Of a stretch of DNA of 64,000 nucleotides, positions 30,427 through 47,338 are shown piece by piece. The notes under the pieces were generated by a model. That model was not told the DNA's origin, did no database searches, and saw only the letters and a program-made list of their open reading frames with translations. The translations under genes and the position numbers were made by a program. The first letter of the stretch is position 1, and the number at the start of each line of letters is the position of its first letter. Source of the DNA: Dehalococcoidia bacterium (GTDB lineage: Bacteria; Chloroflexota; Dehalococcoidia; SZUA-161); NCBI GenBank assembly GCA_011174795.1, contig DUEY01000002.1, positions 11,013-75,012 on the forward strand, in the 5' to 3' direction.

Positions 30427-31908
30427 TTATGCATTATCCAGGAAGAAAGCCGGCCTGAAAGGATCCCACCTGCCTACTAACCTATCGAAGGCAGGATCGG
30501 GGAATGTCTCCTTGAACATCCGGTAGTAATACAACTCCTCAACTGACGACAACCAGGGGGTATCCTCGGTCCTGTTGTGTTCTGCCAGGTCGATTGATGA
30601 GAGGTGCTTCTCAGCCTCCTCACGCATAGCATACGCTACACCAGAGCCCTGAGCGAAGAACCGCTTCGTCTGGTAGATGATGTGGTCGGGCAAACAACCC
30701 TCAAAGGCCTGTCGCAGGACCCACTTCCCCGTCTGCTCAGGGCCATGAATCTTGCAACTTAGTGGGATCTTCAGACAAAAGTCCATCACCCTTGCATCGA
30801 GGAACGGTGTGCGGCTTTCATACGAATTCGCAGCATTCAGTCTATCCAGCCGTTGTAGTGCTGTATTATGAGCAACATTGATAAGCTGGTCGACTATACT
30901 GGCGATCTCCTCAAGGTTTTTTCCCTGCCTGAACTGGCCGTCATACCCGGCTAAGAACTCATCAGCCCCTTCCCCAGTAAGAACGCACTTAGCATGCGGG
31001 CTGACAAAGCGCCCTGCCAAGAAATTGGCGATTGCACCGTGTACACAGCTTTCCTCATACATCTCCTGATGATAGATGGCCAAAGGCAGTATCTCGCTTA
31101 TCTCTTTTTCGCTAAACATCAAGATATGATGCTTAAGGCCAAGGTACTCCGTCACATCCTTTGCCAGCGGCAGGTCCTGCCCCTCCTCCATACTCACCGT
31201 AAAGCATTCGATATCCGGCTTTACCTCGTGGGCCATATAGGCAATAAGGCTGCTGTCCAGACCGCCACTCAGGAGGATACCTTTTACAGCGTTGTCCCTC
31301 ATCCTCTTTTCAGTTGCTTCCATTAAAAGCTGCTTTACCACTTTCTTGGCTTGCTCATAATCCTCGAAATCCGGTGTTTCGACGGCCTCGGAAGTCGGAT
31401 ACTTCTGGAATCCCAGTTCGCGGGAGTAAACGTATCCGGGCGGGAACTCCCTGACATCTCTAGAGATGCCCACCAGTGCTTTTGCCTCAGATGCAAAGCA
31501 CAGGCTCCCATCACTGTTATGCCCGTAGTATATCGGTTTAATACCAGCCCAATCACGAGCCAGTATTAGCTTGCCATTATCCGACACGGCACAGGCAAAG
31601 TCGCCGTTTATCTTAGCGGCAAAGCGGGTGCCGAACCTGACGTACAGGTCAAGCACAGCCTCAGCGTCGGCTTTAGTTCCCTTATCCGAATTGTAAACAC
31701 GCCCATCGAGAACGACCGCTACCTTGCCGTCAGAGGTATAATGGGAGCCATCCCTGCAGTCTGCACCCATATTCAGCTCATTGCAACCTACATTCACCTC
31801 GCCTTCGCGGCTCGTCCAAGTCTCGTGAGGGCCTCTGTGCTTGATCCGCTCAAGCATTCGGTCTAGCTCACCGTTATCAGCACCCTGAACTCCCGCTATT
31901 CCTGCCAA
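30427..31908 (-). CDS. AsnB-family ATP-dependent amidoligase with degenerate glutaminase domain (Cys1 replaced by Ala; beta-lactam-synthetase-like architecture)
   Basis: The N-terminus is MAGIAG (no Cys), and the glutamine-binding RLSI motif is replaced. The PP-loop SGGLDSS is retained. Confidence 0.75.
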   Translation of the reverse strand: MAGIAGVQGADNGELDRMLERIKHRGPHETWTSREGEVNVGCNELNMGADCRDGSHYTSDGKVAVVLDGRVYNSDKGTKADAEAVLDLYVRFGTRFAAKINGDFACAVSDNGKLILARDWAGIKPIYYGHNSDGSLCFASEAKALVGISRDVREFPPGYVYSRELGFQKYPTSEAVETPDFEDYEQAKKVVKQLLMEATEKRMRDNAVKGILLSGGLDSSLIAYMAHEVKPDIECFTVSMEEGQDLPLAKDVTEYLGLKHHILMFSEKEISEILPLAIYHQEMYEESCVHGAIANFLAGRFVSPHAKCVLTGEGADEFLAGYDGQFRQGKNLEEIASIVDQLINVAHNTALQRLDRLNAANSYESRTPFLDARVMDFCLKIPLSCKIHGPEQTGKWVLRQAFEGCLPDHIIYQTKRFFAQGSGVAYAMREEAEKHLSSIDLAEHNRTEDTPWLSSVEELYYYRMFKETFPDPAFDRLVGRWDPFRPAFFLDNA

Positions 31909-31931
31909 GAATCACCTCTTTCTAGGAGATT

Positions 31932-31961
31932 AATATATCTATGATATATCATAGATATATT
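31932..31961. promoter_or_regulatory. perfect 30-bp AT-rich palindrome (candidate operator) between the corrinoid-protein gene stop and the AsnB-like gene start
   Basis: taatatatctatgatatatcatagatatat is an exact reverse-complement match over 28-30 bp, about 24 nt upstream of the 31908 start codon. Confidence 0.5.
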
Positions 31962-31978
31962 TGATTCTACGCCCACGC

Positions 31979-32653
31979 CTACTGGTAGGCGTCCAGTACC
32001 TTAACAGCATCGAAGCCATCCACACAATAGGCATCCGCCCCTATCTCGCTGGCGTACTCATCGGACACCGCTGCCCCACCAATGAGAACCTTAACCTTGT
32101 CCCTGAGGCCACTCTCCTCCAGCGCCTTAATTACATTACCCATGACTACCATCGTGGTTGTCAGTAGAGCGGACAGCCCCAGATACTGAGGCTTCTCTTC
32201 CCTGACGAACTCAACAATCTTCTCCGTGGGCACATCTATACCCAGGTCATGCACCTCGTATCCCGCCCCTTTGAGCAAAATGGACACAATGTTCTTCCCG
32301 ATATCGTGTATATCACCCTGAACCGTGGCTATAGCGAATTTCCCCTTGGTCTCCACATTAGAAGCTTCCAGATGCGGCTTGAGCACATCCATGGCTGCGC
32401 CTACCGCCTCGGCAGAGGCAAGCATATCGGGGATGAAGTATTCCTTCGTAGAGAATTTCTCACCTACCACCTGCATCCCCGCAGTCAAACCCTCCGTGAT
32501 TATCACCTGCGGTGAGATACCCTTATCCAGAGCCTCCTTCGTCAACTCAAGAACACCGGGACCCGTGAGTTCCTCATCTATCCCTTCATCTTCCTCGGTT
32601 TTTCTTCCCTGGATAACGTTCTCCTTCATTGCCGCAATAATGTCCTCGCCCAT
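31979..32653 (-). CDS. cobalamin-binding corrinoid protein (second copy)
   Basis: DxHxxG motif (DIHDIGKN). Paralog of the 19109-19753 protein. Confidence 0.8.
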   Translation of the reverse strand: MGEDIIAAMKENVIQGRKTEEDEGIDEELTGPGVLELTKEALDKGISPQVIITEGLTAGMQVVGEKFSTKEYFIPDMLASAEAVGAAMDVLKPHLEASNVETKGKFAIATVQGDIHDIGKNIVSILLKGAGYEVHDLGIDVPTEKIVEFVREEKPQYLGLSALLTTTMVVMGNVIKALEESGLRDKVKVLIGGAAVSDEYASEIGADAYCVDGFDAVKVLDAYQ

Positions 32654-32655
32654 TT

Positions 32656-34197
32656 TTATCTCCTTTCCTCATATACGTTTAGTCTCGGCAACAAGCCGGG
32701 AATCTCCTGGAATATCTTAGCTGTTGTAGCCTTATCAATATGCTCTACCGGCTTCTCCAGGAGTTCCTGCATCCTGTCATATGCTATTTTAAATACGCTG
32801 TCCGTCTCCCCATCACCCTCAAAGGGATAGGGCGGCGAGAGTTGCCCGCTACGCATAACCTTGCGGATATAGCTGATATAAAGCTTCTGTGGTGTCGTTA
32901 CGACCTCCCGTATCTGCTTCAAGACCTCAGCAATCTCAGTTTCGTCAATACGCGGCGGCCTTAGGAAAAACTTAATCATCTGGAAGTGGGCATCATCCAG
33001 CACAGCCTGAAGAAGGCAGAAAACGGAATTGCAGTCAAGCAGACCGTATGCGCAGTGCAAGTACTGGGGCCCGCTCAAGGTAACCAATATGTCTGAGAAT
33101 AAACGCTCTATCGATGCTTGCTGTCCGGGCGTCTTCGTATCACAGACGCCCGCAGTCGAATAGTTAGGTATCCTGTAGAATCGCGCCATCTGGACGCAGT
33201 CGACATTGTACTGGCTGGTTTCAACAGCACCGTAGGAATCGCCGAGGGTATCCATGCGAGCCCGAACGGGGACGCTTCCATAAATGACCGGCGTACCCTT
33301 ATTTACCAGCTGACTCAAGGTTATACCCGCTAGAACCTCCGCGTTTATCTGAGCCATGATACCTGCTTCCTTGATAGGAGCGGTGCTCCCCGCCTGGGGT
33401 GACGAAGAAACCACCAGTGGCAGTCCCCTTCGGCAAATCTCGATAAATGTATCCGTAGTGTCCTCGACAAATTGCAGGGGGCTCTTGACCAGACAGGTGA
33501 TGAAGGAGATGATGGGATTCTCCCTAAGCTCTTCCTCCCCACCCACTATTATCTTCGCCATATTCACAACATTATCTAGTTGCTTCAGGCTGGTTAACCC
33601 CGACATAAAATGCTTGGTGTTATTATTCAAAGAGGCGAAATATTTATTGACGTCCTTATTCTCCTCTGTTATGTCCCTATCCTGAATGTTAACTGTACGG
33701 ATGTAGCCATCCACAGTCTCCAGATGCTCACAGACATGTGCTGACTTGCAGAGGTCAGCCACAGTACCGCGTCGCGGGTGGAACTCAGGCACCTGAATCT
33801 CCGTAGCAGGGTCGGATTTCTTCACATAGGTCGGGAAATCGACATCCAGCCAGATATTGGTTTCAGAGCCCGTGATAAAACGTACCCTTGGCTCTTCGCC
33901 ATCCAGTATCAGCATGTTCTCGGGATTCCTAGCGCCTAATTTAACCGTCTTGGGTGCGCTATCGAGGGCCTCGATAACTACCTTCTCCGGGATTCTCACC
34001 AGCCAGCACGGATGGTCGCTGGGGGAAACCGGCGTAACCTCCGCACCTTTGCCATCGAATATCTCAGCGGCCTCACGATTGAAAGACATCAGGCCAGGGT
34101 CGCTCAATATCTCTATGGAAGCCTGGTGAATCTGTTCCACCTGCTCTCTGGTCATCCTTTCGTAAGGCTTCTCAACTAAGATTCCTTCCCTAGGCAC
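32656..34197 (-). CDS. MttB-superfamily methyltransferase (non-pyrrolysine)
   Basis: 513 aa, colinear with the other MttB paralogs, uninterrupted ORF. Confidence 0.85.
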   Translation of the reverse strand: MPREGILVEKPYERMTREQVEQIHQASIEILSDPGLMSFNREAAEIFDGKGAEVTPVSPSDHPCWLVRIPEKVVIEALDSAPKTVKLGARNPENMLILDGEEPRVRFITGSETNIWLDVDFPTYVKKSDPATEIQVPEFHPRRGTVADLCKSAHVCEHLETVDGYIRTVNIQDRDITEENKDVNKYFASLNNNTKHFMSGLTSLKQLDNVVNMAKIIVGGEEELRENPIISFITCLVKSPLQFVEDTTDTFIEICRRGLPLVVSSSPQAGSTAPIKEAGIMAQINAEVLAGITLSQLVNKGTPVIYGSVPVRARMDTLGDSYGAVETSQYNVDCVQMARFYRIPNYSTAGVCDTKTPGQQASIERLFSDILVTLSGPQYLHCAYGLLDCNSVFCLLQAVLDDAHFQMIKFFLRPPRIDETEIAEVLKQIREVVTTPQKLYISYIRKVMRSGQLSPPYPFEGDGETDSVFKIAYDRMQELLEKPVEHIDKATTAKIFQEIPGLLPRLNVYEERR

Positions 34198-34252
34198 GTT
34201 ATTCCTCCTGATTAACTCAACAATTAGCAGAGCCCTGGTATCTATATCGCGG

Positions 34253-35062
34253 CTACTCTACCAGCAGGCCCTTCCTGTGAGCCCTGATAAAGCCTTTACA
34301 CGATGGGTCATTCCCCGTAAGCATATCAGCAACCCTGATGAAACTCATCATCCTAGCATCCAGTGGGTTCAGAATAGCGGCATCGAGCCCCGCAGAAGCT
34401 GCCATTACAAGAAAGGCACGGTTGACCAAACCCCGGTTCGGCAATCCGTAAGAGATGTTGCTGAGCCCGACCACAGTTTTTGCGGAAGGATAACGGGACT
34501 TAATCCCCTCAATAGTCTTCAGCGTGACGAACCCCTGGTTAGAATCTACAGAAACGGGAAGCACCAGAGGGTCGAAGAATATCTGCTCCTCCTGCATCCC
34601 CAGACGAGTCAAGTGCACCATGATCGACTCAGCAGCGTCGAGACGCTCGTCAACGGTGGGAGGGATTCCCCCCTCTCCCATAACCAGCGCCACCAGCGAA
34701 GCCCGGCGCTCCGCTGCTAATCTACCCACAGGTTCCAGCCTGTCAGGCTCGGCATTGACCGAATTGATCATCACATTGTCACCACGGTATTTACGCAAGC
34801 CAGCCTCAATAATGGAGGGAGTATCGCTATCAATAGCCAGCGGCTTCTCCGTTACTGACTGAACGATATCCACTAACCACTCCATCGCCATCGCAGGATT
34901 CTCCCAGGTGCCGTGGCCAACCCCAGCGTTTACATCTATGAAATCGGCCCCGGCAGCATCCTGCTCCCTAGTAAGGTTCTCCAGGAACTCCTGATTTTTA
35001 TTCGATATTGCCTCACCAACCGACTTGTTGGAGGCATTTATCTTCTCACCAATTACTAGCAA
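34253..35062 (-). CDS. methyltetrahydrofolate:corrinoid methyltransferase (MtrH/MeTr-like), second copy
   Basis: MLVIGEKINASNK...GADFIDVNAG. Paralog of the 18270-19067 protein. TTG start. Confidence 0.75.
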   Translation of the reverse strand: MLVIGEKINASNKSVGEAISNKNQEFLENLTREQDAAGADFIDVNAGVGHGTWENPAMAMEWLVDIVQSVTEKPLAIDSDTPSIIEAGLRKYRGDNVMINSVNAEPDRLEPVGRLAAERRASLVALVMGEGGIPPTVDERLDAAESIMVHLTRLGMQEEQIFFDPLVLPVSVDSNQGFVTLKTIEGIKSRYPSAKTVVGLSNISYGLPNRGLVNRAFLVMAASAGLDAAILNPLDARMMSFIRVADMLTGNDPSCKGFIRAHRKGLLVE

Positions 35063-35078
35063 CTTTCTACACTCCCAT

Positions 35079-36521
35079 CTACGATTCTACGATGCCTTTT
35101 ATCTCAGACAACACTCTGGCTCTTATGTCAACAGGCAAGCTATAGCCGTCTTTTGCCAAGATATCATCCACCCTCGCCGCCGCCCTCTCCCATGTTTTCT
35201 TAGCCCCTCCAGCCTCCCAATCCCCTCGGCTATTCCTATCGCTGAGCGCAGGCTGATAATGTTGATCTCGCATAAACCGCCTGGTATGCTTGGCGGAAAC
35301 GAAATTACCCCCCGGCCCCACCTCCTTAATGAGGTCAAAGGCCATCGTCTCCTCGTTCACCTCTATACCCTGAACAGCCCTCATCACCATCCCCAGTATC
35401 TCGTTATCCACAACATATTTCTCATAGCATGCAGTCAGAGCAAACTCCATAAGACCTGCAGCGTCGTGGATATAATTTGCGCCAGCCAGAGCATTGAGAA
35501 GTCCAGTGATAGCAGACTCATATCCGCTCTGTGCATCCACAACCTTAGCGTCAGTCATGCCTCCGGTGGAATAGAAGGGGAGCTGGTAAAACTGCGCCAT
35601 CTGTGCCCCACCCGCGTTAATGAGGCCCATCTCAACAGAGCCAGCCAGATAATTGAAGTTACTGAGGTCTGTGCTCGTTGCCACCGAGCCCAGAATAACA
35701 GGCGTCCCCGGACTCGCGAGTTGGGTAAGCATCACGCCCATCAATGAGTCTACTGTTTGCATTAATATATTACCGGCGAGCGTCACCGGCGAGGTAGCCC
35801 CACAGAGCGGTTCTGCGGGGCAGACCACAGGTATGCCGCTTCTTGCGATAGCTATCATAAAGTCGCCGTACTCTTTGTCTATCTTCAACGGGCTTATGGT
35901 ACAGGCTATCATCGATATAATAGGACGCTGGCGAAGGCTATCGGCAGAACCGGCGATAATCTCCGCCATCTTTATCACCTGCTTCAGACCATCCATGGTA
36001 TATAGCCCGCCCATAACATGCTTGCTGGTATTGTCCAAGCCTGCGAAGAAGCGATTTATGTCCACCTGCTCTATTGGCAAATCGTTAGGGTATGTAGGCA
36101 GCAGGAAGAAGTGGATATTATCCAGGTGGTCAACCAGCTTGGCGATGCACCTCAGGTCATCCAGGGTGGCAGGTGTCTTTTCACCCGTAGCCTGCCGAAA
36201 GATGTTCAGGGCAGTCCCCCCCGTCCCTGCATAGACACGAGTTCCACCCAGATGAAGATCGTGCTTCTCCTCTTGACCGCAGAGCGTTATCTCAGACGGC
36301 GCCATCTCTATCAGTTCCATCGCCTTCTCAGTTGGTAAACGCACCAGCCTCTTTTCGTCATCCACCAAAGCCCCCGCCCTCCTGAAAAGGTCCAGTCCGT
36401 TATCGGAATGAACCTGAAAGCCTACTTCCTCGATTACTCTCATGACATTCAGGTGCATCATCTGAATGCCCTCTTCGGTAATCGGCTTAAAGCTGCCGCC
36501 GGGTAATCCCCTCCGTATCAT
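35079..36521 (-). CDS. MttB-superfamily methyltransferase (non-pyrrolysine)
   Basis: Start set at the internal Met preceded by a strong SD (AGGAGGTG), which avoids a 62-nt overlap with the upstream gene. 480 aa. Confidence 0.8.
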   Translation of the reverse strand: MIRRGLPGGSFKPITEEGIQMMHLNVMRVIEEVGFQVHSDNGLDLFRRAGALVDDEKRLVRLPTEKAMELIEMAPSEITLCGQEEKHDLHLGGTRVYAGTGGTALNIFRQATGEKTPATLDDLRCIAKLVDHLDNIHFFLLPTYPNDLPIEQVDINRFFAGLDNTSKHVMGGLYTMDGLKQVIKMAEIIAGSADSLRQRPIISMIACTISPLKIDKEYGDFMIAIARSGIPVVCPAEPLCGATSPVTLAGNILMQTVDSLMGVMLTQLASPGTPVILGSVATSTDLSNFNYLAGSVEMGLINAGGAQMAQFYQLPFYSTGGMTDAKVVDAQSGYESAITGLLNALAGANYIHDAAGLMEFALTACYEKYVVDNEILGMVMRAVQGIEVNEETMAFDLIKEVGPGGNFVSAKHTRRFMRDQHYQPALSDRNSRGDWEAGGAKKTWERAAARVDDILAKDGYSLPVDIRARVLSEIKGIVES

Positions 36522-36528
36522 ATAGGTT

Positions 36529-37203
36529 TCACCTCCTGCCCAGACAATCGTATTTACGACAGGTTTCACAGGGATTGTAATTCTTCGCACCGCTATCGGG
36601 CGTACTTATACCAATAATACCTGAGATTGACTTTTGGGGAACCATAAGATAACCCTCGGTAAGTTGAACCCCTATCGAATCTCCTTCCAAAGCCGTAAAA
36701 ACCATCTCCTGCTGACTTATGTCCCAGTCACAATAGCCTGGGCTGAAGCGCCGACTGGTAACAAGTCCCTCAACCCTGGCTTTGTCATCCAGAATCCCCT
36801 TAACGAAATCTGCTAATTTTTCGACTGCATCTGACCCTATTGCATCCAGAACGTACGACTGAAGTATAAGCCCGTCTTCAGCCAGCCTATTAGCCATTTC
36901 CTCAAGATATTTCCCTATTGTTACTACAAATAACGCAACCTTACAACACCTGTCCAGCAGGCGAGCAATAACCTCGCCGTTAAACACGATCGACCCTTCA
37001 ATATAGATGTTAGAGCCCACCACCTGCTCGATATCCCTGATAATATATACGTACAACGGCTCGATTAGATTGTGAGCCTCTCCCATATATTCTTTAATCA
37101 AAGAAGAAATACGCAACGATGGTTTAATGCCATTGCGATATCCCAGATGGCGACACACGTTTTTTCTATCGATTTTTATATCTATATGATCGCTAGTAAC
37201 CAT
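36529..37203 (-). CDS. standalone vitamin-B12-dependent methionine synthase activation (reactivation) domain homolog
   Basis: RRFSPGYCDWDIS and LTEGYLMVPQKSISGIIG align with E. coli MetH RPAPGYPACPEHT and LTESFAMWPGASVSGWYF of the AdoMet-binding reactivation domain. Confidence 0.7.
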   Translation of the reverse strand: MVTSDHIDIKIDRKNVCRHLGYRNGIKPSLRISSLIKEYMGEAHNLIEPLYVYIIRDIEQVVGSNIYIEGSIVFNGEVIARLLDRCCKVALFVVTIGKYLEEMANRLAEDGLILQSYVLDAIGSDAVEKLADFVKGILDDKARVEGLVTSRRFSPGYCDWDISQQEMVFTALEGDSIGVQLTEGYLMVPQKSISGIIGISTPDSGAKNYNPCETCRKYDCLGRR

Positions 37204-37586: not shown

Positions 37587-37667
37587 TACTAAGTCAATAC
37601 TCACCACGAAGGTTCACACTTGCATTCCGACCTGATTTGATGTATACTAAAGTCAAACCGAATATGG

Positions 37668-37757
37668 AACCGCTGGGGGAGCTCAGAGGCTGAGAGTCCG
37701 CCAAGGCGGACAACCCTTGGAACCTGACCTCGGTAATGCGAGCGTAGGAAAGCGGGA
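37668..37757 (+). ncRNA. TPP (THI-box) riboswitch
   Basis: CTGGGGGAGC..CTGAGAG...ACCCTTGGAACCTGACCTCGGTAATGCGAGCGTAGGAA matches the THI element consensus (CUGAGA, ACCCUUUGAACCUGAUCUGGUUAAUACCAGCGUAGGGAA). Confidence 0.85.
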
Positions 37758-37772
37758 GCTTCGAAGAAGAAA

Positions 37773-39140: not shown

Positions 39141-39935
39141 ATGCCGTTGTTCCATCCCGTAAAAGAGAGCGATGTCACACGCGCCATCGTCAGCAACTTC
39201 CTGCGCCAGTTTGAAGAGTACGCCGAGAGCGATGTCATCATCGTCGGCGGCGGGCCCAGTGGCCTGATTGCGGGGAAGGAGCTGGCTAAGGCCGGTCTCA
39301 AGGTAGCTTTAATAGAGAGGAACAACTACCTTGGTGGCGGTTTCTGGATCGGCGGCTACTTCATGAACAAGTTCACGCTGAGAGAGCCGTCACAAGAGGT
39401 ACTGGATGAGCTGGGAGTGCCCTACGAGAAGGCTACTGCCGGATTATACGTGGCGGACGCTCCCCACGCATGCGCAAGCCTCATCGCCGCTGCCTGCAAT
39501 GCCGGGCTCAAAATATTCAACCTGACCCTACTCGAGGACATCATACTACACGAAAACGACCGCATGGCGGGTGTAGTGGTCAACTGGAGCCCGATTATCC
39601 ACATGCCCAAGGAGTTGACCGCACTCGACCCTGTGCCGATGGAATCTAGGGTCGTGATCGACGCTACCGGCCATGATGCCGTGGTGCTAAAAAAGCTCGA
39701 GAAGCGGCAACTGATCCAGCTTGCGGGCGAGGGCGCACTGTGGATTGACAAATCGGAGGACGCAGTAGTAGAGCACACTGGTGAGGCTTATCCCGGCCTA
39801 GTCGTGACCGGTATGGCGGTGGGTGCGGTATACGGTCTGCCCCGCATGGGCCCTACCTTCGGCGCTATGCTCCTTTCTGGAAAGAGAGCAGCAGAGGTCA
39901 CCCTTGGAATAGTAAAAAAAGCCGCTATACCCTAG
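39141..39935 (+). CDS. thi4: Thi4-family thiazole synthase
   Basis: FAD-binding GGGPSGL then LIERNNYLGGG, characteristic of Thi4/THI1. Confidence 0.8.
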   Translation: MPLFHPVKESDVTRAIVSNFLRQFEEYAESDVIIVGGGPSGLIAGKELAKAGLKVALIERNNYLGGGFWIGGYFMNKFTLREPSQEVLDELGVPYEKATAGLYVADAPHACASLIAAACNAGLKIFNLTLLEDIILHENDRMAGVVVNWSPIIHMPKELTALDPVPMESRVVIDATGHDAVVLKKLEKRQLIQLAGEGALWIDKSEDAVVEHTGEAYPGLVVTGMAVGAVYGLPRMGPTFGAMLLSGKRAAEVTLGIVKKAAIP

Positions 39936-40036: not shown

Positions 40037-41458
40037 ATGAAGACGCTTATTGTTCATTTTCGCTCTGCCCCTGATAGAGACCTAAAGGAAGAGTTGGCAG
40101 ACGCAGACCCACTGGACTCAGCAGGCACAGACGGCGTCTCCCTGGAGATGGCGAAACGTCAAACCCTGCTTAAAGAAATGGGCCACGAGGTTGCGATTTG
40201 CTCAGCATACGACTGGGCGGATTTCCCAGTGCCTGCGCTGGAGTTCAACCGAGAACAAGTGACAATGCTGGTACGTAATCTCTACGGGGCTGGGATAACG
40301 GAATTTACCAGCGAAGCCGAACTCAGAAGTGCCTTCGATGCATCTCGACTGGAGTTGCAACGACAGTTGCGTAGTGTGATCGAGTGTTTTGCACCCGACC
40401 TGCTCTTTATACACAATATATTCTCCCTCCCCGTTCATCCGGCAGCCACCGTGAGCCTGACGGGACTTCTTCGAGAAAAGCAAATACCCTGCGCTGCTAT
40501 ACACCATGACATGCTCAGTGAAGGGGCATACAAATTCACGCCGACATGTGACCTGGCTAAATCTATACTCAGTGAATATTATCCCCCAAGCATGGCTAAT
40601 ATCAGGCACTGGACGATAAATACGCGTAATAAAAAAGCCCTTTGGGACAAGGGTGTAGATGCCAAAGTGATTCATGACTCAATGGATTTTGAGCAACGTC
40701 CCGAGCCCTCAGAGCGTGCCAGAATACGGGCTATTCTGCGAGCTAAATACGGTATTGATTCACATGACGTTGTCCTTTTCTCAGGTGCACGTATAGTGCC
40801 CAACAAGCAGACTGAACTGGCGGGACACCTGACCGCTGCTATGCTCAGCCTGCGCCAAGAGATTATAGGAAAGAAGCTCTACCATGGCGATGTATTTTCA
40901 GACAAGAGCAAAGTATTTCTCGTTCTCGCCGGCCGACCGGAGCGGGCTTTTCTAGACTACCGAAAGAACCTCTTCGAGCTTTTCGATACGCTGAAGATTC
41001 AATGGAGCTACGTAGGTGACGATGTACGCCCGCATCGCAACATAGATGAAGGTCTCTATGCACTATATCCCGATTTCTATACAATAGCCGACTTTGTCCT
41101 CTACCCCACAGGTTGGGAGGGATTCGGCAACCAGCTTCTCGAGGCATTAGCCGCTGAACTGCCAGTTGCGGTCTTTGAATATCCGGTTTTTAAGGAGGAT
41201 ATAGCTCCCACAGGCGTTAAGATTGTGTCTCTTGGAGACAAACTGCTGCCGGAGAAAGATGGCAGAGGTCTTGTTAAACTTCCCTATGAGGTGCTGCAAC
41301 AAGCAGGCCGCGAGATAATTGCCATTCTCACCAGCCCCGAGGTATTTCGGAGCATTACCGACCACAATGTCGCTGTTGGAAAGAAATATTTTAGCTACGA
41401 TGTGCTCAGAGCCCACCTGCGTGACGCACTGCAATGGGCCAAAACATGTAACGGCTAG
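40037..41458 (+). CDS. GT4-family (GT-B) glycosyltransferase
   Basis: C-terminal E-x7-E motif (EGFGNQLLE) typical of retaining GT4 enzymes. Confidence 0.6.
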   Translation: MKTLIVHFRSAPDRDLKEELADADPLDSAGTDGVSLEMAKRQTLLKEMGHEVAICSAYDWADFPVPALEFNREQVTMLVRNLYGAGITEFTSEAELRSAFDASRLELQRQLRSVIECFAPDLLFIHNIFSLPVHPAATVSLTGLLREKQIPCAAIHHDMLSEGAYKFTPTCDLAKSILSEYYPPSMANIRHWTINTRNKKALWDKGVDAKVIHDSMDFEQRPEPSERARIRAILRAKYGIDSHDVVLFSGARIVPNKQTELAGHLTAAMLSLRQEIIGKKLYHGDVFSDKSKVFLVLAGRPERAFLDYRKNLFELFDTLKIQWSYVGDDVRPHRNIDEGLYALYPDFYTIADFVLYPTGWEGFGNQLLEALAAELPVAVFEYPVFKEDIAPTGVKIVSLGDKLLPEKDGRGLVKLPYEVLQQAGREIIAILTSPEVFRSITDHNVAVGKKYFSYDVLRAHLRDALQWAKTCNG

Positions 41459-41575
41459 TCTATCTATTACCGTAAAGTACTCTACCTTATCAACGAAAAA
41501 TATGATAATCTGTATTGGTTTGGCAACACTATTAATCACCTTTCCCGCTAGAACAAGGAATAAACCTATATTAAA

Positions 41576-44500
41576 ATGACGAGCAAAGATATCGCGGAAC
41601 TTGAAGCCTTATACGCAGAGTCGCTAGGCAAACCCCTCAAAGAGGCCAAAAAAATTGGAGATGCTGACATAGTAGTCGGCATCACTCTGCAAAATGAAGC
41701 CGGCACAGTCACTAACATGTGCCGGCAAATAGCGAAAGCGGCCTCAAAGCTCTTCCCCGATAGAAAAAGCGTTTTGGTCTGCGCTGGCGATCCAGATAGT
41801 AAGCAAGCAATAAAAGCCGTTCAAGAAACACGTCCAGAACGGGATATGAAGAGAATTGCTTTTTCTATGAAGGACAAACGCCTGAGCGGCAAGGCTTGGC
41901 GTCTCAGGGCGATGATGGAGATAGCAAATAGTCTGAAAGCCGATTTGGTTGTTCTGGATGCCAACCTCGAGAGCAGGAAATCCAGGAACGAAACCGAAGA
42001 TACAGCCCTGGAATGGTTCAAGCACCTATTGACACCGATAGAGAAAGAAGGGATTGACCTCGTTATACCCAGGTCTAACGGTCATCATCTCGACGTTCCA
42101 GATTTCACTCATCTGGTTCGTCCCCTGCTTGCCTCTATATTCAATCTCAAAATTGGAAGCTTGCCCAATCAAGCGTTCGGGGTCTCGAGCAAGCTCGTTG
42201 GGATCTATATGGCTGACCCCGACGTCTGGTCCGCCCGCATCGGCGATCACGGCATCGGTACATGGCTCGTCATAACCGCCGTCACCAGTAATGCTCAAAT
42301 ATGTGAAACCAGTCTAGGGTGGAAAAGCTATCAGGCTTACCCAGACAAGGAGCTGGTATGGAGACAGCAGACTGAGGTGCTCTTTGAACAGATAGCAGCA
42401 TGGAAAGAATGGTGGCGGCAAAGAGGGGACCTAATCCATCCTCTGGCCATATTTCAGGATAGCAGGAACCACTGGCCAGAGGTTGTGATGCCAGATACTA
42501 ATACCCTGATAGAGCGATACAAGCAGGGGTACAACGAGTTCCAAGGCTTATATGCAGAGGTGTTATCTCGAGACGCGTCAAGAGAGCTCAGGAAGCTGTC
42601 AGGAAGCGAGCCAGAGAAATTTATGTTTCCTTCGCATCTCTGGGTAGAGATAGTCTATGACTTCCTAGTCGCCTATTGTCTGGAGCAGGAATTCAATAAA
42701 ACCAACTTGCTCAATTCCTTCATTACCCTATGCTATGGGAGAGAAGCCGGATTCATTCAGGAGCTTAAAACACTTGAGGAACGGTTGGCAGCCGCAATAC
42801 CTGATAAGGCAGACCATTTGACAGCTCTCATGGCAGAATGGGAGATCGAGCGTCAGAGCCAGGAATCTATAAAGCAGAAGCCCGGTTTCCTGGCGAGATG
42901 GCGAGAGATAGAGACAGAACGCAAACCGCTTCTCCCCAAGGTGACCTACCGCGAATTTATTCCCGGAGTACCCTTAATAGTACTCAAGGAGCTTGTTTCC
43001 CCTTCAGGTGATATCATTAGAACAGATGACATCTATAGAAATATACTTCAAAGATACCACAAGGAATTTGAGAAGTTCATTCACGAGAGGCTCAATCTCC
43101 GTTCAACAGCAACTCCCGAGGATATCGTTAAGTCCATCACCGATTTGATGTTACAGGTAGAGGATGATTTAGATAAACTCTTGATACCTGGCGACCTCTC
43201 AAGTATAGACGGAACCCAAGCCGTCGCCCAGGCTATATTCCGCCATTTCCCCCACTCTGAAACATTCGCCCTGAAACCTGAAGTAGCTTCCTGGATTCTG
43301 CGGCGAAATCCCCCATCCAATCTATTCATACGGTTCAGCGCAGCTAACCTCGCTGAGCTTGAGAAAAAATTCGGTCCAAATGATCTCCTGGCTCTATCAA
43401 GCGTATCGGAGGAAACAGCATATACATCGGGTGTATGGGAATGGATAGCAGGAAATGCCCGTTCTGAACACTTTGCACCATTGAACTTAGAGCCACTGGC
43501 CGTAAACTCTGAGGACTTCCGCATGCTCACCATTCTCAAAGAGACCTCTACCTTGAGCAAGCTTACGGGAAGAGTAATTATAGGCAATCTGCTTAAAGGA
43601 ACAGGCGGCAAATTCCCCAAGCTGCGTTACTTCATCACGATGGCCAAGAATATCGTCGAGGCTGAGAGTTTAGGGAAAATATGGGAACAGTTTGCCCGGG
43701 AGAGAAAGGAGTTTGGCACGAGGGTCGTAAATTCGCTCAGAGGGCACTGGGGAAAAGAGCCTTTATCAGCCCACAACATATTTGAAAATAAAATCCAGAG
43801 GATATTGATTGAGCGGCTTAGGGGCATGAATAAGGACTGGCATGAAAGGGGCGAACCCACAATGTCCCGCCTCGTTTCAAATATAAACAACGTTGTGGAT
43901 TGTTATCACCTTGCTTCGTCTTTTCCAGACGGGACATTCATTCCCTGCTCTGCCTGGACATGGGCAAGTTACAGCTTCAAAGGTGGCAAAGGAATGCCCA
44001 CGCCTCTGTCACTGCATGTAGAGAGGGACTGGGCATCGAGGGAGTTCCTCGTGGAGTTAGTTAAAGCCCTAGGTGGCAGCGAGGAGCATATTGACAGGAA
44101 GATTACGGAACTGATGGGAGAGGGGAGAGAGTCAGAAAATCTGGCTACGGTAATTCTCCCTGGGTGGGACACTGTGCAGGAGGTTATCCCTGAGCAATTA
44201 CCACTGCCCGCAGAGCCCGAGGCCGGCAAGCTGAGCAGGTTCCCTGATAATCCGATTCTGAGAGCAATAGAAGATCACCCCTGGGAATCCAAATATGTGT
44301 TCAATCCAGGTGTCATCAGGCTAGATAGTAAAATATATATCTTTTACCGCGCATTTGGAGATGACCAAATCTCCCGAATCGGACTGGCAATAAGCTCAGA
44401 TGGCTTTCATATCGATGAGAGGCTGGAAAGCCCTATATACGAGCCAAAGGAGAAATGGGAGAAAAAAGGCTGCGAGGACCCCAGACTGGTATTGATAGGG

Positions 44501-45190
44501 GAACGCATCTACATGACTTATACTGCATACGACGGCGTTGTGGCCCAGATTGCCCTAGCCTCAATTGAGCTAGCAGATTTTCTCGCCCGCCGCTGGGATA
44601 AATGGGAACGATGCGGTCTCGCTTTTCCCGGGTTCGAGGACAAGGATGCAACGCTGTTTCCCCAGCTGTTCAATGGACGATATATGCTCTATCACAGGAT
44701 AGAGCCAAGTATCTGGATTTCTTCATTTGAACGTATAGAATGCCCCTGGCCCCGTGAAGAACACCGTATACTGATAGGTCCAGGCGCAGGTATGGTCTGG
44801 GATGGCCTGAAGATCGGAGGCGGCTCACAGCCTATAAAGACAAAATATGGCTGGCTCCTTATCTACCACGGCGTTGACAACTCCTGGGTTTATAGGCTGG
44901 GCGTACTGCTGGTAGCACTGGACAACCCGGGACGGGTGATCTATCGCTCCCCCAATCACGTGTTAGAACCCGAGGCTAGCTGTGAGCTCGGCGAAGAGGG
45001 TTGCTTCGTGCCTCACGTTGTATTCACCTGTGGCGCCGTTTCCGGTGTGGACAAAGCGATGCTTGATGATGATGATGAGGTCATCATTTACTACGGGGCA
45101 GCAGATACAGCGATTTGTGTCGCCACAGCAAAGGTCTCAGAGCTTATACCAGAGGAAATCAGGCTAAGCAGAAACCACGGATTCTATTAG
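41576..45190 (+). CDS. 1204-aa multidomain protein with a C-terminal GH130-like glycoside phosphorylase/hydrolase beta-propeller domain and an N-terminal GT-A-like domain
   Basis: The last ~330 aa resemble GH130 mannoside phosphorylases (FNPGVIRLDSKIYIFYRAFGDD..., CEDPRLVLIGERIYMTYTAYDG). The N-terminal ~230 aa have a GT-A-like pattern (VVGITLQNE..., LVVLDANLE). Confidence 0.65.
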   Translation: MTSKDIAELEALYAESLGKPLKEAKKIGDADIVVGITLQNEAGTVTNMCRQIAKAASKLFPDRKSVLVCAGDPDSKQAIKAVQETRPERDMKRIAFSMKDKRLSGKAWRLRAMMEIANSLKADLVVLDANLESRKSRNETEDTALEWFKHLLTPIEKEGIDLVIPRSNGHHLDVPDFTHLVRPLLASIFNLKIGSLPNQAFGVSSKLVGIYMADPDVWSARIGDHGIGTWLVITAVTSNAQICETSLGWKSYQAYPDKELVWRQQTEVLFEQIAAWKEWWRQRGDLIHPLAIFQDSRNHWPEVVMPDTNTLIERYKQGYNEFQGLYAEVLSRDASRELRKLSGSEPEKFMFPSHLWVEIVYDFLVAYCLEQEFNKTNLLNSFITLCYGREAGFIQELKTLEERLAAAIPDKADHLTALMAEWEIERQSQESIKQKPGFLARWREIETERKPLLPKVTYREFIPGVPLIVLKELVSPSGDIIRTDDIYRNILQRYHKEFEKFIHERLNLRSTATPEDIVKSITDLMLQVEDDLDKLLIPGDLSSIDGTQAVAQAIFRHFPHSETFALKPEVASWILRRNPPSNLFIRFSAANLAELEKKFGPNDLLALSSVSEETAYTSGVWEWIAGNARSEHFAPLNLEPLAVNSEDFRMLTILKETSTLSKLTGRVIIGNLLKGTGGKFPKLRYFITMAKNIVEAESLGKIWEQFARERKEFGTRVVNSLRGHWGKEPLSAHNIFENKIQRILIERLRGMNKDWHERGEPTMSRLVSNINNVVDCYHLASSFPDGTFIPCSAWTWASYSFKGGKGMPTPLSLHVERDWASREFLVELVKALGGSEEHIDRKITELMGEGRESENLATVILPGWDTVQEVIPEQLPLPAEPEAGKLSRFPDNPILRAIEDHPWESKYVFNPGVIRLDSKIYIFYRAFGDDQISRIGLAISSDGFHIDERLESPIYEPKEKWEKKGCEDPRLVLIGERIYMTYTAYDGVVAQIALASIELADFLARRWDKWERCGLAFPGFEDKDATLFPQLFNGRYMLYHRIEPSIWISSFERIECPWPREEHRILIGPGAGMVWDGLKIGGGSQPIKTKYGWLLIYHGVDNSWVYRLGVLLVALDNPGRVIYRSPNHVLEPEASCELGEEGCFVPHVVFTCGAVSGVDKAMLDDDDEVIIYYGAADTAICVATAKVSELIPEEIRLSRNHGFY

Positions 45191-45239: not shown

Positions 45240-45539
45240 TCAGCCGGCCTGCTTAGCCCTACCCCTTCGCTTCCAGCCCAGCATAACCAGGAGCTCCCCA
45301 ACAGCAGCATCCGTGTCTTCATCCTTGAGAGGCACATCCGAGTGAATTCTGTACTGATTCTGCCTGCCCACCTTGGTCTTTGTAATGTACCCTTCCCTTT
45401 CGAGATCGTTTATTATTTTGTGGGCTGCCCTCTCGGTTATACCGACAGCATCGCCGATCTCCCTGGCTGTACTGCGCGGACGTTTGGCAATAGCGGCTAA
45501 TATAAGACCGTGGTTTGTAATGAAGCTCCATTCAGGCAT
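45240..45539 (-). CDS. winged-helix transcriptional regulator (MarR/ArsR-like)
   Basis: HTH segment STAREIGDAVGITERAAHKIINDLEREGYI. Confidence 0.6.
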   Translation of the reverse strand: MPEWSFITNHGLILAAIAKRPRSTAREIGDAVGITERAAHKIINDLEREGYITKTKVGRQNQYRIHSDVPLKDEDTDAAVGELLVMLGWKRRGRAKQAG

Positions 45540-45906
45540 TTTTGTAAAATTCTCCTACAATATTCCGACAACCACTTGACAAGCCCCTCATATTATGCAT
45601 ACTTAAAACTGCTATATATTTCATGTTATATAGACGTAGCAGTAATTATCTAGTATAATATAGCAGTTGTTATTATTCACGAAATAATTAGCACACTCCA
45701 TACTTCTTGTAATGTCTTTCCTGAAAACTTGAGTAGAATTATTCCACAGAAAACCCTGTCTGTCAAGCCCCGTAGGAATATGGCAGTTAAAAGATGAAGT
45801 TAAATCGTACGCGTAATGACAGAGTGATTATATGGAATTTCTAGATGACTATGATTTTCCCGCGGATTATTATGAATTATTCGAGTGGAGCCTCGTAAAA
45901 AACTGC

Positions 45907-45935
45907 TTGACAATCAGTCTTTTATAACCTAGTAT
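45907..45935 (+). promoter_or_regulatory. candidate promoter TTGACA-N17-TAGTAT
   Basis: Consensus -35 with correctly spaced -10-like hexamer, inside the AT-rich island upstream of the 46043 gene. Confidence 0.3.
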
Positions 45936-46042
45936 ACAGGTGGCCAAGCGCGTTTTCCACAATTGCCCCTACTGGCCTATGTGCCATTCATCTGCAGAGG
46001 CAAGCGGGAGGTGTGGGTGGCTCCGACACAAGGGAGGATTGG

Positions 46043-47338
46043 ATGGCATATATTACTTTTATCACAACATATAAACCAATAATCTGTGGAATCGCGGACT
46101 ACTCAGACTTCCTCACCAGAGAGAGCACGCCCGGTACATGGGCTGTGATCACGTTCGATCTTGACAACTTCGTTGTACCGTTCAGCGACGACCTGATCGA
46201 ACTCACCACTCCCGTAAGCTACTGCATACCCAGCCGAGAGGACTACACCGCCGACTCCATTTCAAAATGGCTGAAGCTAAAAGAAGCCCATGTTCTCTGG
46301 TTTCAACACGAATTCGGCATCTGGGGCAACGGGGTTCGATTCACTAACATGCTCAGAGAGCTAAACGATGTTACAGTGGTATCCCCGCACACACTCCATT
46401 TTCAAAGCAACGAGACCACGTATGGACTGCGTAAATTTGAAGATTCCTTCCTGCGTTCGCTCCTGCCCAGCACGGATGCAATTACAGTGTTCAGCGATGG
46501 CGTTTATAGTGCAGTAACCCGTGCATTCCCTGAGTACAGCGACAAGGTGCATGTAATGAGGCACGGCACTCATTGCTACCCGACGATAGCCAGAATGAGC
46601 AGAGCGGAAGCTAAAGCTAAGATCTATGACTACCTGATGTACGAATCGAATCTAGACCAGGCAAGCAAGGATAGGATACAGCGGGAAAATGTGTTTACCG
46701 ACCCTGCCACAACGCTCATAGGCGGAACAGGGTTTATCACAGCGAACAAAGGTATCGAGCTCATCTACCAGGTACGCAATACACTGCTGAAGATGCTGCC
46801 TCAGCAGAAGATGGTAGCGGTATATGTAGGCTTCCTGAGGGAACCCGATAATATCATTGATGGAGGGTGTGCTGCCAAATTGCGGGCCAAATATAACGGC
46901 TCGGGACAGTTCTTCTTGGAGAATTATCTGCCAGAAGAGATGCTACCTATTATGCTTAGAGCCTTTGATATCCATTTCTACTGGCCGGGAGACTGCACTC
47001 AGAGCGGAATCATTGCCCATGCCCTCGGTGCCGGCGCTACGATTGCCTGCCGTGATATGGAGGGTGTAGGCGAAACGGTAAAAATGGCGGGTGGACTCGC
47101 CCGGTCAGAACTGGGGCAGCTCATCACAGGGATCAAGGAGCTTATCCTCAACCCTGAACTCAGGGACGAAATATCTCAGAGAGCGGTGAGATACGCCATG
47201 AAGTTCTCGTGGAAAAATCAGGCCCTGAAGCACTTTGAGCTGGCAGAAGAATTATGCCGTTCCAAGGCTAAGCGTTCAATTACAGGTTCTACCCTTCTTC
47301 TCAGCGCCTCGTTAAAAGAAAACCGTCTCCCACTGTAA
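46043..47338 (+). CDS. hypothetical protein (possible GT-B-like glycosyltransferase; weak)
   Basis: Start set at the ATG preceded by the GGGAGG SD. No diagnostic motif recognised. Confidence 0.45.
   Translation: MAYITFITTYKPIICGIADYSDFLTRESTPGTWAVITFDLDNFVVPFSDDLIELTTPVSYCIPSREDYTADSISKWLKLKEAHVLWFQHEFGIWGNGVRFTNMLRELNDVTVVSPHTLHFQSNETTYGLRKFEDSFLRSLLPSTDAITVFSDGVYSAVTRAFPEYSDKVHVMRHGTHCYPTIARMSRAEAKAKIYDYLMYESNLDQASKDRIQRENVFTDPATTLIGGTGFITANKGIELIYQVRNTLLKMLPQQKMVAVYVGFLREPDNIIDGGCAAKLRAKYNGSGQFFLENYLPEEMLPIMLRAFDIHFYWPGDCTQSGIIAHALGAGATIACRDMEGVGETVKMAGGLARSELGQLITGIKELILNPELRDEISQRAVRYAMKFSWKNQALKHFELAEELCRSKAKRSITGSTLLLSASLKENRLPL

Follow-up and report, generated by a model that had tools for sequence, protein, structure and literature searches.

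A widespread Dehalococcoidia protein joining a glycosyl-glycerate-synthase-like module to a predicted beta-1,2-mannoside phosphorylase

Enzymes of glycoside hydrolase family 130 (GH130) have been described, almost without exception, as single-module proteins of mannan catabolism, and the 1592 GH130 entries in CAZy include 6 that are multimodular, of the GH130-GT81 and GH130-GH130 types (Li et al. 2020, PMC7660257). For Thermoanaerobacter, whose GH130 enzymes are the nearest to the one described here, no source of beta-1,2-mannan has been noted (PMC4264767). In Petrotoga, the solute mannosylglucosylglycerate (MGG) is made by a non-phosphorylating route in which glucosylglycerate synthase (GgS) is followed by the glycosyltransferase (GT) MggS (PMC3736172); the review PMC11009771 has no mention of GgS. 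Here we analyse a 64,000-nt stretch of DNA from a Dehalococcoidia bacterium (the window) and, within it, a 1204-residue protein, BIG, in which the GH130 module is fused to a GgS-like module and to a large conserved domain (the X domain), an arrangement that extends over three phyla of anaerobes and archaea.

An initial annotation of the window had placed BIG behind a family GT4 glycosyltransferase gene (GT4a). Both open reading frames (ORFs) and their coordinates were confirmed (Table 1), and that of BIG is free of internal stops. The two genes are separated by 117 nt with no terminator-like site, and neither a hydrophobic segment nor a signal-like N-terminus was found in GT4a, in BIG or in GT4b, a second GT4-like protein encoded downstream. 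A 100% identical 1204-residue protein is recorded on three contigs; two of these were read (ENA and Logan, JGI being a further source), and the downstream neighbours are the same in both. We collected 110 homologues, 34–72% identical to BIG and almost all full length, and the ortholog search proposed with the initial annotation thus shows that the same fusion is conserved and not accidental. In a pattern scan with one genome per species, relatives are encoded in 418 genomes, the majority from Dehalococcoidia. The carriers include Bacillota (Thermosediminibacter litoriperuensis, Tepidanaerobacter, Thermovenabulum, Moorellales, Halanaerobiales and Syntrophomonas erecta) and archaea (Methanomicrobia from peat, Methanophagales and Thermoplasmata). 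The identical copies, the homologues and the number of genomes together indicate that the gene and the fusion are real and under selection. BIG is a soluble cytoplasmic enzyme, and its family is widespread and appears not to have been characterised before.

The modules are not equally conserved. Relative to its three nearest homologues, identity rises from 52–59% in the GT-A domain through 63–68% in the helical domain that follows it and 69–74% in the X domain to 76–84% in the GH130 module, and the same order, with GT-A lowest and GH130 highest, holds across 76 loci. A metagenome-assembled genome of Syntrophomonadaceae has a seemingly split fusion, in which a 904-residue GT+X gene precedes a GH130 gene of its own (P0142/P0284, MCR4399411/MCR4399412); a fused protein of 1186 residues, P0288, is in the same 90% cluster, and the split may be a frameshift or a pseudogene rather than a true one.

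The last ~330 residues had been described as GH130-like, correctly so on the evidence of Pfam and of structure matches. PF04041 matches BIG 887–1191 (E = 1.7e-51, 175.5 bits against a cutoff of 26, profile positions 3–315 of 320) and also matches 36/36 of the aligned homologues. The nearest solved structures are 7fip (Teth514_1789) and 9fj8 (Teth514_1788), at E ~1e-50, and Uhgb_MS, TM1225 and Lin0857 are more distant matches. The top NCBIfam model is beta-1,2-mannobiose phosphorylase at 228 bits, below its equivalog cutoff of 450, so that an exact substrate identity is not claimed for this module. Phosphorylases acting on beta-1,2 linkages are recognised by an Asp as proton donor, by Arg and His as ligands of phosphate and by a Glu/Lys (E/K) pair at the +1 subsite (Li et al., PMC7660257), and E136, K184, R202 and R242 are named as key residues of Uhgb_MS (PMC12814180). 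The corresponding residues of BIG are R925, E967-D968, K1023, H1040-R1041, K1079, H1098 and D1177; R925, E967, D968, K1023, R1041, K1079, H1098 and D1177 are invariant in the 36 homologues. In the alignment to Uhgb_MS, E967 falls on E136, D968 on the next Asp (D137 by our own count), K1023 on K184, R1041 on R202 and K1079 on R242, with R925, H1098 and D1177 at further conserved positions. D968 is in the place of the donor, and R1041, H1098 and K1079 in those of phosphate-binding residues, as in the phosphorylase class, whose definition also demands the absence of the catalytic-base pair of the hydrolase subfamilies; E967 and K1023 form the E/K pair of the beta-1,2-acting subfamilies GH130_4 and GH130_6. 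Judged by these residues, the C-terminus of BIG is very probably an inverting beta-1,2-mannoside phosphorylase. The reaction predicted from homology, for which all of the needed residues are there, is beta-Man-1,2-R + Pi <-> alpha-Man-1-P + R, where Pi is inorganic phosphate and Man-1-P is mannose 1-phosphate.

Our own proposal, a small mannose-containing heteroside (see below), has one main rival. The locus might instead maintain a mannogen-like reserve, an intracellular beta-1,2-mannan primed by the GT module of BIG or by GT4b, elongated by the GH130 module from Man-1-P or GDP-mannose and degraded by it with Pi, in analogy to the GT108 enzymes of Leishmania. The closest enzymes, Teth514_1788/1789, are indeed oligomannan and mannobiose phosphorylases, and the L2 loop of BIG is short and Teth514-like. 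A short L2 loop is the mark of enzymes that take long beta-1,2 chains and that also accept GDP-mannose as a weak donor (Ladeveze et al., PMC12814180), which would suit such a polymer, although the same work doubts that the glycosyltransferase side-activity of GH130 enzymes is physiologically relevant. Priming has a parallel in the GT81 enzyme GpgS, which according to PMC2581804, PMC3240985 and PMC2674218 primes an intracellular polysaccharide, the methylglucose lipopolysaccharide (MGLP) of mycobacteria. Solo GH130 genes stand beside the fusion in a few loci, and a carbon reserve would suit the archaea of non-saline peat better than an osmolyte would. On the other side, small solutes are what an MggS-like gene next door would lead one to expect, and so would the osmoadaptation genes around stand-alone relatives of the N-terminal module (both described below), and we know of no beta-1,2-mannan reserve in bacteria or archaea. 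We regard a reserve of this kind as rather unlikely.

For the N-terminus, the GT-A-like fold that had been proposed was recovered by an AlphaFold model and by profiles, though not by Pfam, which like NCBIfam has no match in this part of the window copy; Pfam Glycos_transf_2 matches 12 of the 36 homologues. AlphaFold modelling, which had been suggested as a check, gave for BIG 1–300 (from the family alignment) a predicted local distance difference test score (pLDDT) of 85.6, and the top PDB neighbours of the model are glycosyltransferases. The best in Foldseek is the GT81 enzyme GpgS (5jud, E = 7e-8, TM-score 0.54), then MpgS of Rubrobacter (3o3p), with PcManGT and GtrB as further neighbours. 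Direct sequence and profile searches of BIG against the PDB found nothing outside GH130.

The stronger evidence comes from a family of stand-alone proteins. An exhaustive HMMER search with BIG 281–885 gave 190 hits among 1.84 billion representatives, and many stand-alone proteins, 405–437 residues long, match BIG ~300–405 with their C-terminal part. An alignment of 23 of these ~420-residue family members (A4) was compared with that of the BIG family (A1) using hhalign, and BIG 19–448 is matched end to end with a probability of 100% (E = 1e-72, 402 columns). The helical-domain motif FxFPxxLWxxIVYDF...PLYxGR is common to both, and the hidden Markov model of A4 finds the window ORF at 3e-69. Against the PDB, the A4 profile matches GpgS (2.5e-12), MpgS (6.8e-6) and the GT78 mannosylglycerate synthase (MGS, 3e-5); members of the A4 family carry Pfam MGS_GT, and several are labelled ‘glucosylglycerate synthase’ in IMG, which is a database annotation only; an enzyme of that name (EC 2.4.1.268) forms glucosylglycerate from NDP-glucose and D-glycerate. 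This stand-alone family is large, with at least 8000 clusters at E <= 1e-20 from Nitrospirota, Acidobacteriota, NC10 and others. From the end-to-end match and the profile links to GpgS, MpgS and MGS, the first 450 residues of BIG are one evolutionary unit, glycosyl-glycerate-synthase-like in sequence. In terms of the GT81 superfamily, the fold agrees and the sequence-profile relationship is indirect but strong, and such a unit fits the remark in PMC7660257 on CAZy GH130-GT81 proteins. Those CAZy entries are likely to belong to the same family as BIG. One stand-alone member, P0193, lies in locus L083 (4113-10306 of contig ERZ27247235:k141_425114), where it is flanked by DUF5752, a TreT-like GT4, an MscS-type channel, otsB and otsA; this arrangement suggests an osmoadaptation island with a diglycosyl-glycerate or trehalose-linked pathway.

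The state of the catalytic residues is a separate matter. In GpgS, Glu54 serves the ribose, Lys114 is in the PGK motif, the second Asp of Asp134-x-Asp136 binds metal, Glu232 is sugar-binding and pairs with Lys114 and Asp134, and His258 is a probable second metal ligand (Pereira et al., PMC2581804). Transferred to BIG through the A4-GpgS and BIG-A4 alignments, these residues give a family consensus of E-K-E-D-D-H, and exactly this set is present in 32 of 72 homologues from the loci (~45%). The window copy reads E41, K106, D128, N130, G228 and Y252, so that three of the six ligands are replaced: N130 stands for the metal Asp (GpgS D136), G228 for the sugar-binding acid (E232) and Y252 for the His (H258). 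At the place of the DXD motif the family consensus has E-A-D and the window copy D-A-N; the window copy therefore lacks the GT81 ligand set. Its nearest relative, P0002 (72% identical), is also without the first two ligands (EIH, GTGTW), which argues for decay within the lineage and not for a sequencing error; the GT-A domain was the fastest-evolving part of BIG in the comparisons made. The GT module of the window copy is probably inactive or strongly altered and, from its residues, would not be an active synthase.

This bears directly on the initial annotation, which had tentatively read the two ends of BIG as making and breaking down one glycoside, a compatible solute, in a self-contained module with the GT4 next door. 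In its full form, this version has an active synthase, an active phosphorylase and GT4a as an essential third enzyme. Its domain calls hold, GT4a is MggS-like and the fusion is conserved. The synthase is in doubt with the ligands at 130, 228 and 252 replaced, the first two of them in P0002 as well. Enzymes of GT81, GT78 and GT4 form alpha-linkages, whereas GH130 enzymes act on beta-mannosides, and a retaining transferase and an inverting, beta-specific phosphorylase cannot make and break one and the same bond. With GT4a also an infrequent neighbour of the fusion (see below), we consider this version improbable.

The middle of the protein, described at first as ~600 residues without a family, shrinks to ~400, as ~300–450 is the helical domain of the GgS-like module. 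The two parts are joined by the segment VTYREFIPGVP, in which the columns T457–G464 are invariant or near-invariant while the pLDDT is below 50 (model residues 172–185); segments that dock onto another part typically combine invariance with low model confidence in this way. The AlphaFold model of BIG 281–885, also suggested initially, has a pLDDT of 83.9 and is mostly helical with a few small sheets. Foldseek found no significant match to it in the PDB (best E = 0.086, TM-score <0.2), and no Pfam or NCBIfam model matches the X domain in any of the 36 homologues.

The X domain has a conserved signature of its own (E529, E612, E697, S731, E737, Y777, D785, C791, W796, S800, G803-G804, E816 and W819), which is largely retained in variants of other architecture. 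These are P0117 (1314 residues), with a GgS-like module, X and a TreT-like GT4 in place of GH130; P0131 and P0136 (~888 residues), without GH130; P0123 (1029 residues), of the form GH130-GH130-X; and P0125 (3140 residues), with RidA and alanine-dehydrogenase/PNT-type domains added after GH130. Since the residues are kept across architectures, the conserved site belongs to X itself, and with its acidic, His, Cys and Trp residues it may be a ligand site. The exchange of GH130 for a TreT-like GT4 in P0117 implies that the N-terminal modules are reused with different second sugar-transfer enzymes. P0127 is also among the X-domain proteins of alternative architecture. A further candidate for the middle region, an MggB-like phosphatase, was rejected, as MggB is HAD-like and no phosphatase family matches BIG.

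The neighbouring genes were compared in 44 well-flanked loci, each of which extends 3 kb or more beyond the fusion in either direction. The GT4 assignment of the gene upstream of BIG stands, with PF00534 (Glycos_transf_1) at 31.2 bits against a cutoff of 26.4 and the E-x7-E motif as EGFGNQLLE. Its best match by far is the NCBIfam model of MggS, the mannosylglucosylglycerate synthase (NF041101), over residues 31–463 of 473 (264 bits, E = 2e-78), which is below the equivalog cutoff of 640. GT4a has more than 690 homologues, mostly in Dehalococcoidia and with only generic names. It adjoins the fusion in the closest clade, at 60% identity or more (the window, L001, L004, L005, L006, L017 and L043), and in L026. 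The earlier picture of a GT4 next door as part of a self-contained module does not extend to the family: GT4a is adjacent in two of the 44 loci, whereas GT4b is found within a few kb in 28, either alone or with an (alpha/alpha)6-like domain that is fused to it or comes after it. GT4b is usually immediately upstream of the fusion on the same strand, and it occurs in all clades. The conserved partner of the fusion is therefore GT4b, which lies outside the span first reported. The idea that GT4a compensates for a dead GT module found little support, as GT4a also accompanies copies that keep the DXD Asp (L043 and L017); the His is missing in many clades without GT4a. MggA is not a GH130-type enzyme, MggA and MggS both being GT4 (PMC3736172).

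As a single sequence, GT4b matches Pfam Glyco_transf_4 at E = 0.01 and the NCBIfam GT4 models weakly. The profile of its family (A5) matches GT4 enzymes at 1e-7 to 1e-5 overall, including MshA (6.6e-8), GlgM (1.4e-7), TreT (1.6e-6) and PimA/PimB; some of these top matches transfer sugars to acceptors that are small and soluble. Inspection of the GT4b sequence by eye showed no canonical E-x7-E, and single-sequence searches of the PDB found no match for GT4a, GT4b or the (alpha/alpha)6-like domain. The latter, ~345 residues with only weak GH88 and C5-epimerase-like Pfam matches, is probably an (alpha/alpha)6 barrel. In many genomes it occurs together with the GT4b-type partner, either as a stand-alone protein (L010, L037, L049, L059, L061, L066, L069, L072, L073, L077 and L079) or fused to the GT4 (L015, L044, L048, L051, L057, L064, L067, L068, L074, L075 and L078). 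The window itself has no gene for this domain, nor any further gene with a GgS-like, GH130 or X module besides BIG.

Two further readings were weighed. In the first, the GH130 module would phosphorolyse beta-1,2-mannosides taken up from outside or released from the envelope, the product going into GDP-mannose synthesis, with the other modules regulatory or scaffolding. Such salvage has been proposed for Thermoanaerobacter, where a cluster joins GH130s, a GT4 alpha-mannosyltransferase and a Man-1-P guanylyltransferase, and no part of BIG is better conserved than the GH130 module. Beside the fusion, however, there is no conserved transporter, solute-binding protein or guanylyltransferase, and the ATP-binding cassette (ABC) ATPase cluster found in 14 loci is heterogeneous; in addition, the intact GT ligands of ~45% of homologues and the largely kept X signature indicate more than scaffolding. 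Salvage is in our judgement decidedly improbable. In the second, the locus would assemble a cell-envelope or protein glycan. This derives from ‘cell wall biosynthesis glycosyltransferase’, as GT4a and the stand-alone GT family are named in the source databases, and the GT4b family weakly matches exopolysaccharide and protein-glycosylation GT4 models. These names are automatic, and membrane segments, lipid-carrier enzymes, flippases and polymerases are absent from the locus; phosphorylases moreover need cytoplasmic Pi (PMC7660257). We give envelope assembly hardly any credence. The lack of transporters and of membrane components makes both readings less likely.

We therefore return to the mannose heteroside. 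Our tentative proposal, the best fit to the pieces but possible rather than probable as it stands, is that the locus builds and recycles a mannose-containing heteroside on glycosyl-glycerate, of the mannosylglucosylglycerate class. In most members of the family the N-terminal module would be active as a retaining Leloir transferase, with an alpha-hexosyl-glycerate-type glycoside as its product. This glycoside, or a derivative extended by the partner GT4, would serve as the aglycone R, to which the GH130 module reversibly attaches a beta-mannose. With Man-1-P and Pi, the same module would put on or take off the beta-1,2-mannose, such that breakdown keeps the energy of the bond as Man-1-P. Together with GT4b, the locus could then both build and recycle a small intracellular mannose heteroside. 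In the window copy, the GT module may have only a binding or structural role, with GT4a and GT4b performing the Leloir chemistry and BIG acting mainly as a phosphorylase. The MggS-like gene beside a GgS-like module parallels the GgS-MggS route of Petrotoga and so supports a small-solute pathway. The glycosyl-glycerate solute guessed at initially gains in the same way from the link of the N-terminal family to GpgS, MpgS and MGS, from the MggS-like GT4a and from the otsA/otsB context, and P0117 with its TreT-like GT4 points the same way; the compatible-solute reading is plausible.

Several observations weigh against the proposal. The MGG of Petrotoga and Rhodopirellula is alpha-mannosylated, and GH130 can neither make nor cleave it, so the GH130 substrate would have to be a different, beta-linked compound. 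The GT module of the window copy looks inactive, and the logic of a self-contained system fails there. The N-terminal module is ~19% identical to GpgS, and the name ‘glucosylglycerate synthase’ comes only from database annotation. Genes for GDP-mannose or Man-1-P are not conserved near the fusion, the solo GH130 genes that adjoin it in a few loci would equally fit an oligomannan chain, and the carriers include peat-bog archaea that are not obviously stressed by salt or heat.

A bolder form of the proposal, which we think unlikely, would have three parts: a compound new to prokaryotes (glucosyl- or mannosyl-glycerate with a beta-1,2-mannose added, or else a prokaryotic mannogen, a beta-1,2-mannan primed with glycerate); an X domain that is a new fold whose own site couples the Leloir synthase to the phosphorylase; and a window copy that is a pseudo-glycosyltransferase, its role as synthase having passed to the MggS-like GT4.

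If the coupling is true, Dehalococcoidia, thermophilic Firmicutes and methane-cycling archaea would have a new mannose-containing solute or reserve, its recycling would be ATP-sparing in energy-limited anaerobes, and beta-1,2 GH130 enzymes such as those of Thermoanaerobacter would gain a physiological context. The pairing of domains is already in CAZy, and no characterisation of it was found in the literature. Undescribed so far in the literature searched are the homology of the N-terminal 450 residues to GgS-like proteins, an X domain lacking fold neighbours, GT4b as the partner of the fusion, the variant with a TreT-like GT4 in place of GH130 and the decayed GT module of the clade. For structural genomics, the X domain offers a well-defined target and, as cultured carriers exist, the hypothesis is directly testable.

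Table 1 Features of the BIG locus (positions in the window)
Feature	Position	Strand	Size	Description
GT4a	40037..41458	+	473 aa	GT-B glycosyltransferase, MggS-like branch of GT4, E-x7-E; clade-specific accessory
BIG	41576..45190	+	1204 aa	Cytoplasmic, three modules: GgS/GT81-like, X domain, GH130
BIG residues 19-448	41630..42919	+		Glycosyl-glycerate-synthase-like: GT-A ~25-285 and helical domain ~300-450
BIG residues 456-466 (VTYREFIPGVP)	42941..42973	+		Near-invariant linker, low model confidence
BIG residues 467-870 (X domain)	42974..44185	+		Mostly helical with small sheets
BIG residues 886-1195 (GH130)	44231..45160	+		Five-bladed propeller, predicted inverting beta-1,2-mannoside phosphorylase
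MarR/HTH_24-type winged-helix regulator	45240..45539	-	99 aa	Divergent from GT4b
GT4b	46043..47338	+	431 aa	From ATG 46043 (mechanical GTG start 46013); divergent GT-B/GT4-like

The MarR-type protein encoded between BIG and GT4b is possibly a local regulator. Promoter-like sites are found on both strands at 45576-45959, in the intergenic region between BIG and GT4b. Among the other loci a homologue of this protein was detected only in L019, at a distance of ~7 kb from the fusion, so it is not a conserved neighbour. The remaining surroundings are housekeeping genes (ThiC/Thi4, CinA, NUDIX, CoaE and ThrRS). Directly upstream of the ThiC/Thi4 pair is a thiamine pyrophosphate (TPP) riboswitch (RF00059, 70.9 bits, 37665-37767, + strand). 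It overlaps the mechanical TTG start of the ThiC ORF at 37717, so the true start is probably further downstream, beyond 37767. The thiazole synthase (39141..39935, + strand), named sulfide-dependent ADP-thiazole synthase in NCBIfam, is of the Thi4 type, which is the archaeal and eukaryotic type as opposed to the bacterial ThiG.

Further upstream, at ~31900-37200 on the - strand, is a methyltransferase cluster. Besides two genes of the MttB family, it encodes a corrinoid protein that binds B12, a pterin-binding protein and a protein with a Met_synt_B12 activation domain, a set characteristic of Dehalococcoidia-like anaerobes that demethylate quaternary amines or methylamines. Inside one of the MttB-family ORFs (35079..36590) Rfam finds PYLIS_3, the pyrrolysine insertion element of mttB (53.6 bits, 35459-35558, - strand). 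The codons just upstream of the match read TAT TCC ACC GGA GGC and the ORF has no in-frame TAG, which indicates a non-pyrrolysine MttB homologue that retains a PYLIS-like sequence.

Among known systems, BIG resembles the GH130-GT81 proteins of CAZy (PMC7660257), which are recorded as rare and uncharacterised and pair the same two catalytic families on one chain; that paper is silent on the X domain, the GT4b partner and the decayed GT variants. Its N-terminal module resembles GpgS (M. tuberculosis Rv1208 and M. hassiacum), MpgS (Rubrobacter) and MGS (Rhodothermus), GT-A enzymes with the layout of PGK, DXD, acidic residue and His seen in the BIG family. The additional C-terminal helical domain is common to BIG and the ~420-residue stand-alone family and, unlike GpgS, MpgS and MGS, the module in BIG is fused to two more. 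The neighbouring GT4a matches MggS of the Petrotoga mobilis/Thermotoga maritima type over its full length and keeps E-x7-E, its score below the cutoff placing it on a paralogous branch. GT108 of Leishmania, the enzyme of mannogen cycling, is likewise cytoplasmic, has a GH130-like propeller and both builds and phosphorolyses beta-1,2-mannosides, but it belongs to another family and is eukaryotic and single-module, with no GT-A partner. The closest likeness at the C-terminus is to Teth514_1788/1789 of Thermoanaerobacter sp., to which BIG aligns end to end at the E value given above, with the proton donor, the phosphate ligands, the E/K pair at +1 and the short L2 loop in common. Both systems are cytoplasmic and both lie near a GT4, but the Teth514 enzymes are single modules of ~300 residues, whereas BIG carries 885 additional residues at its N-terminus.

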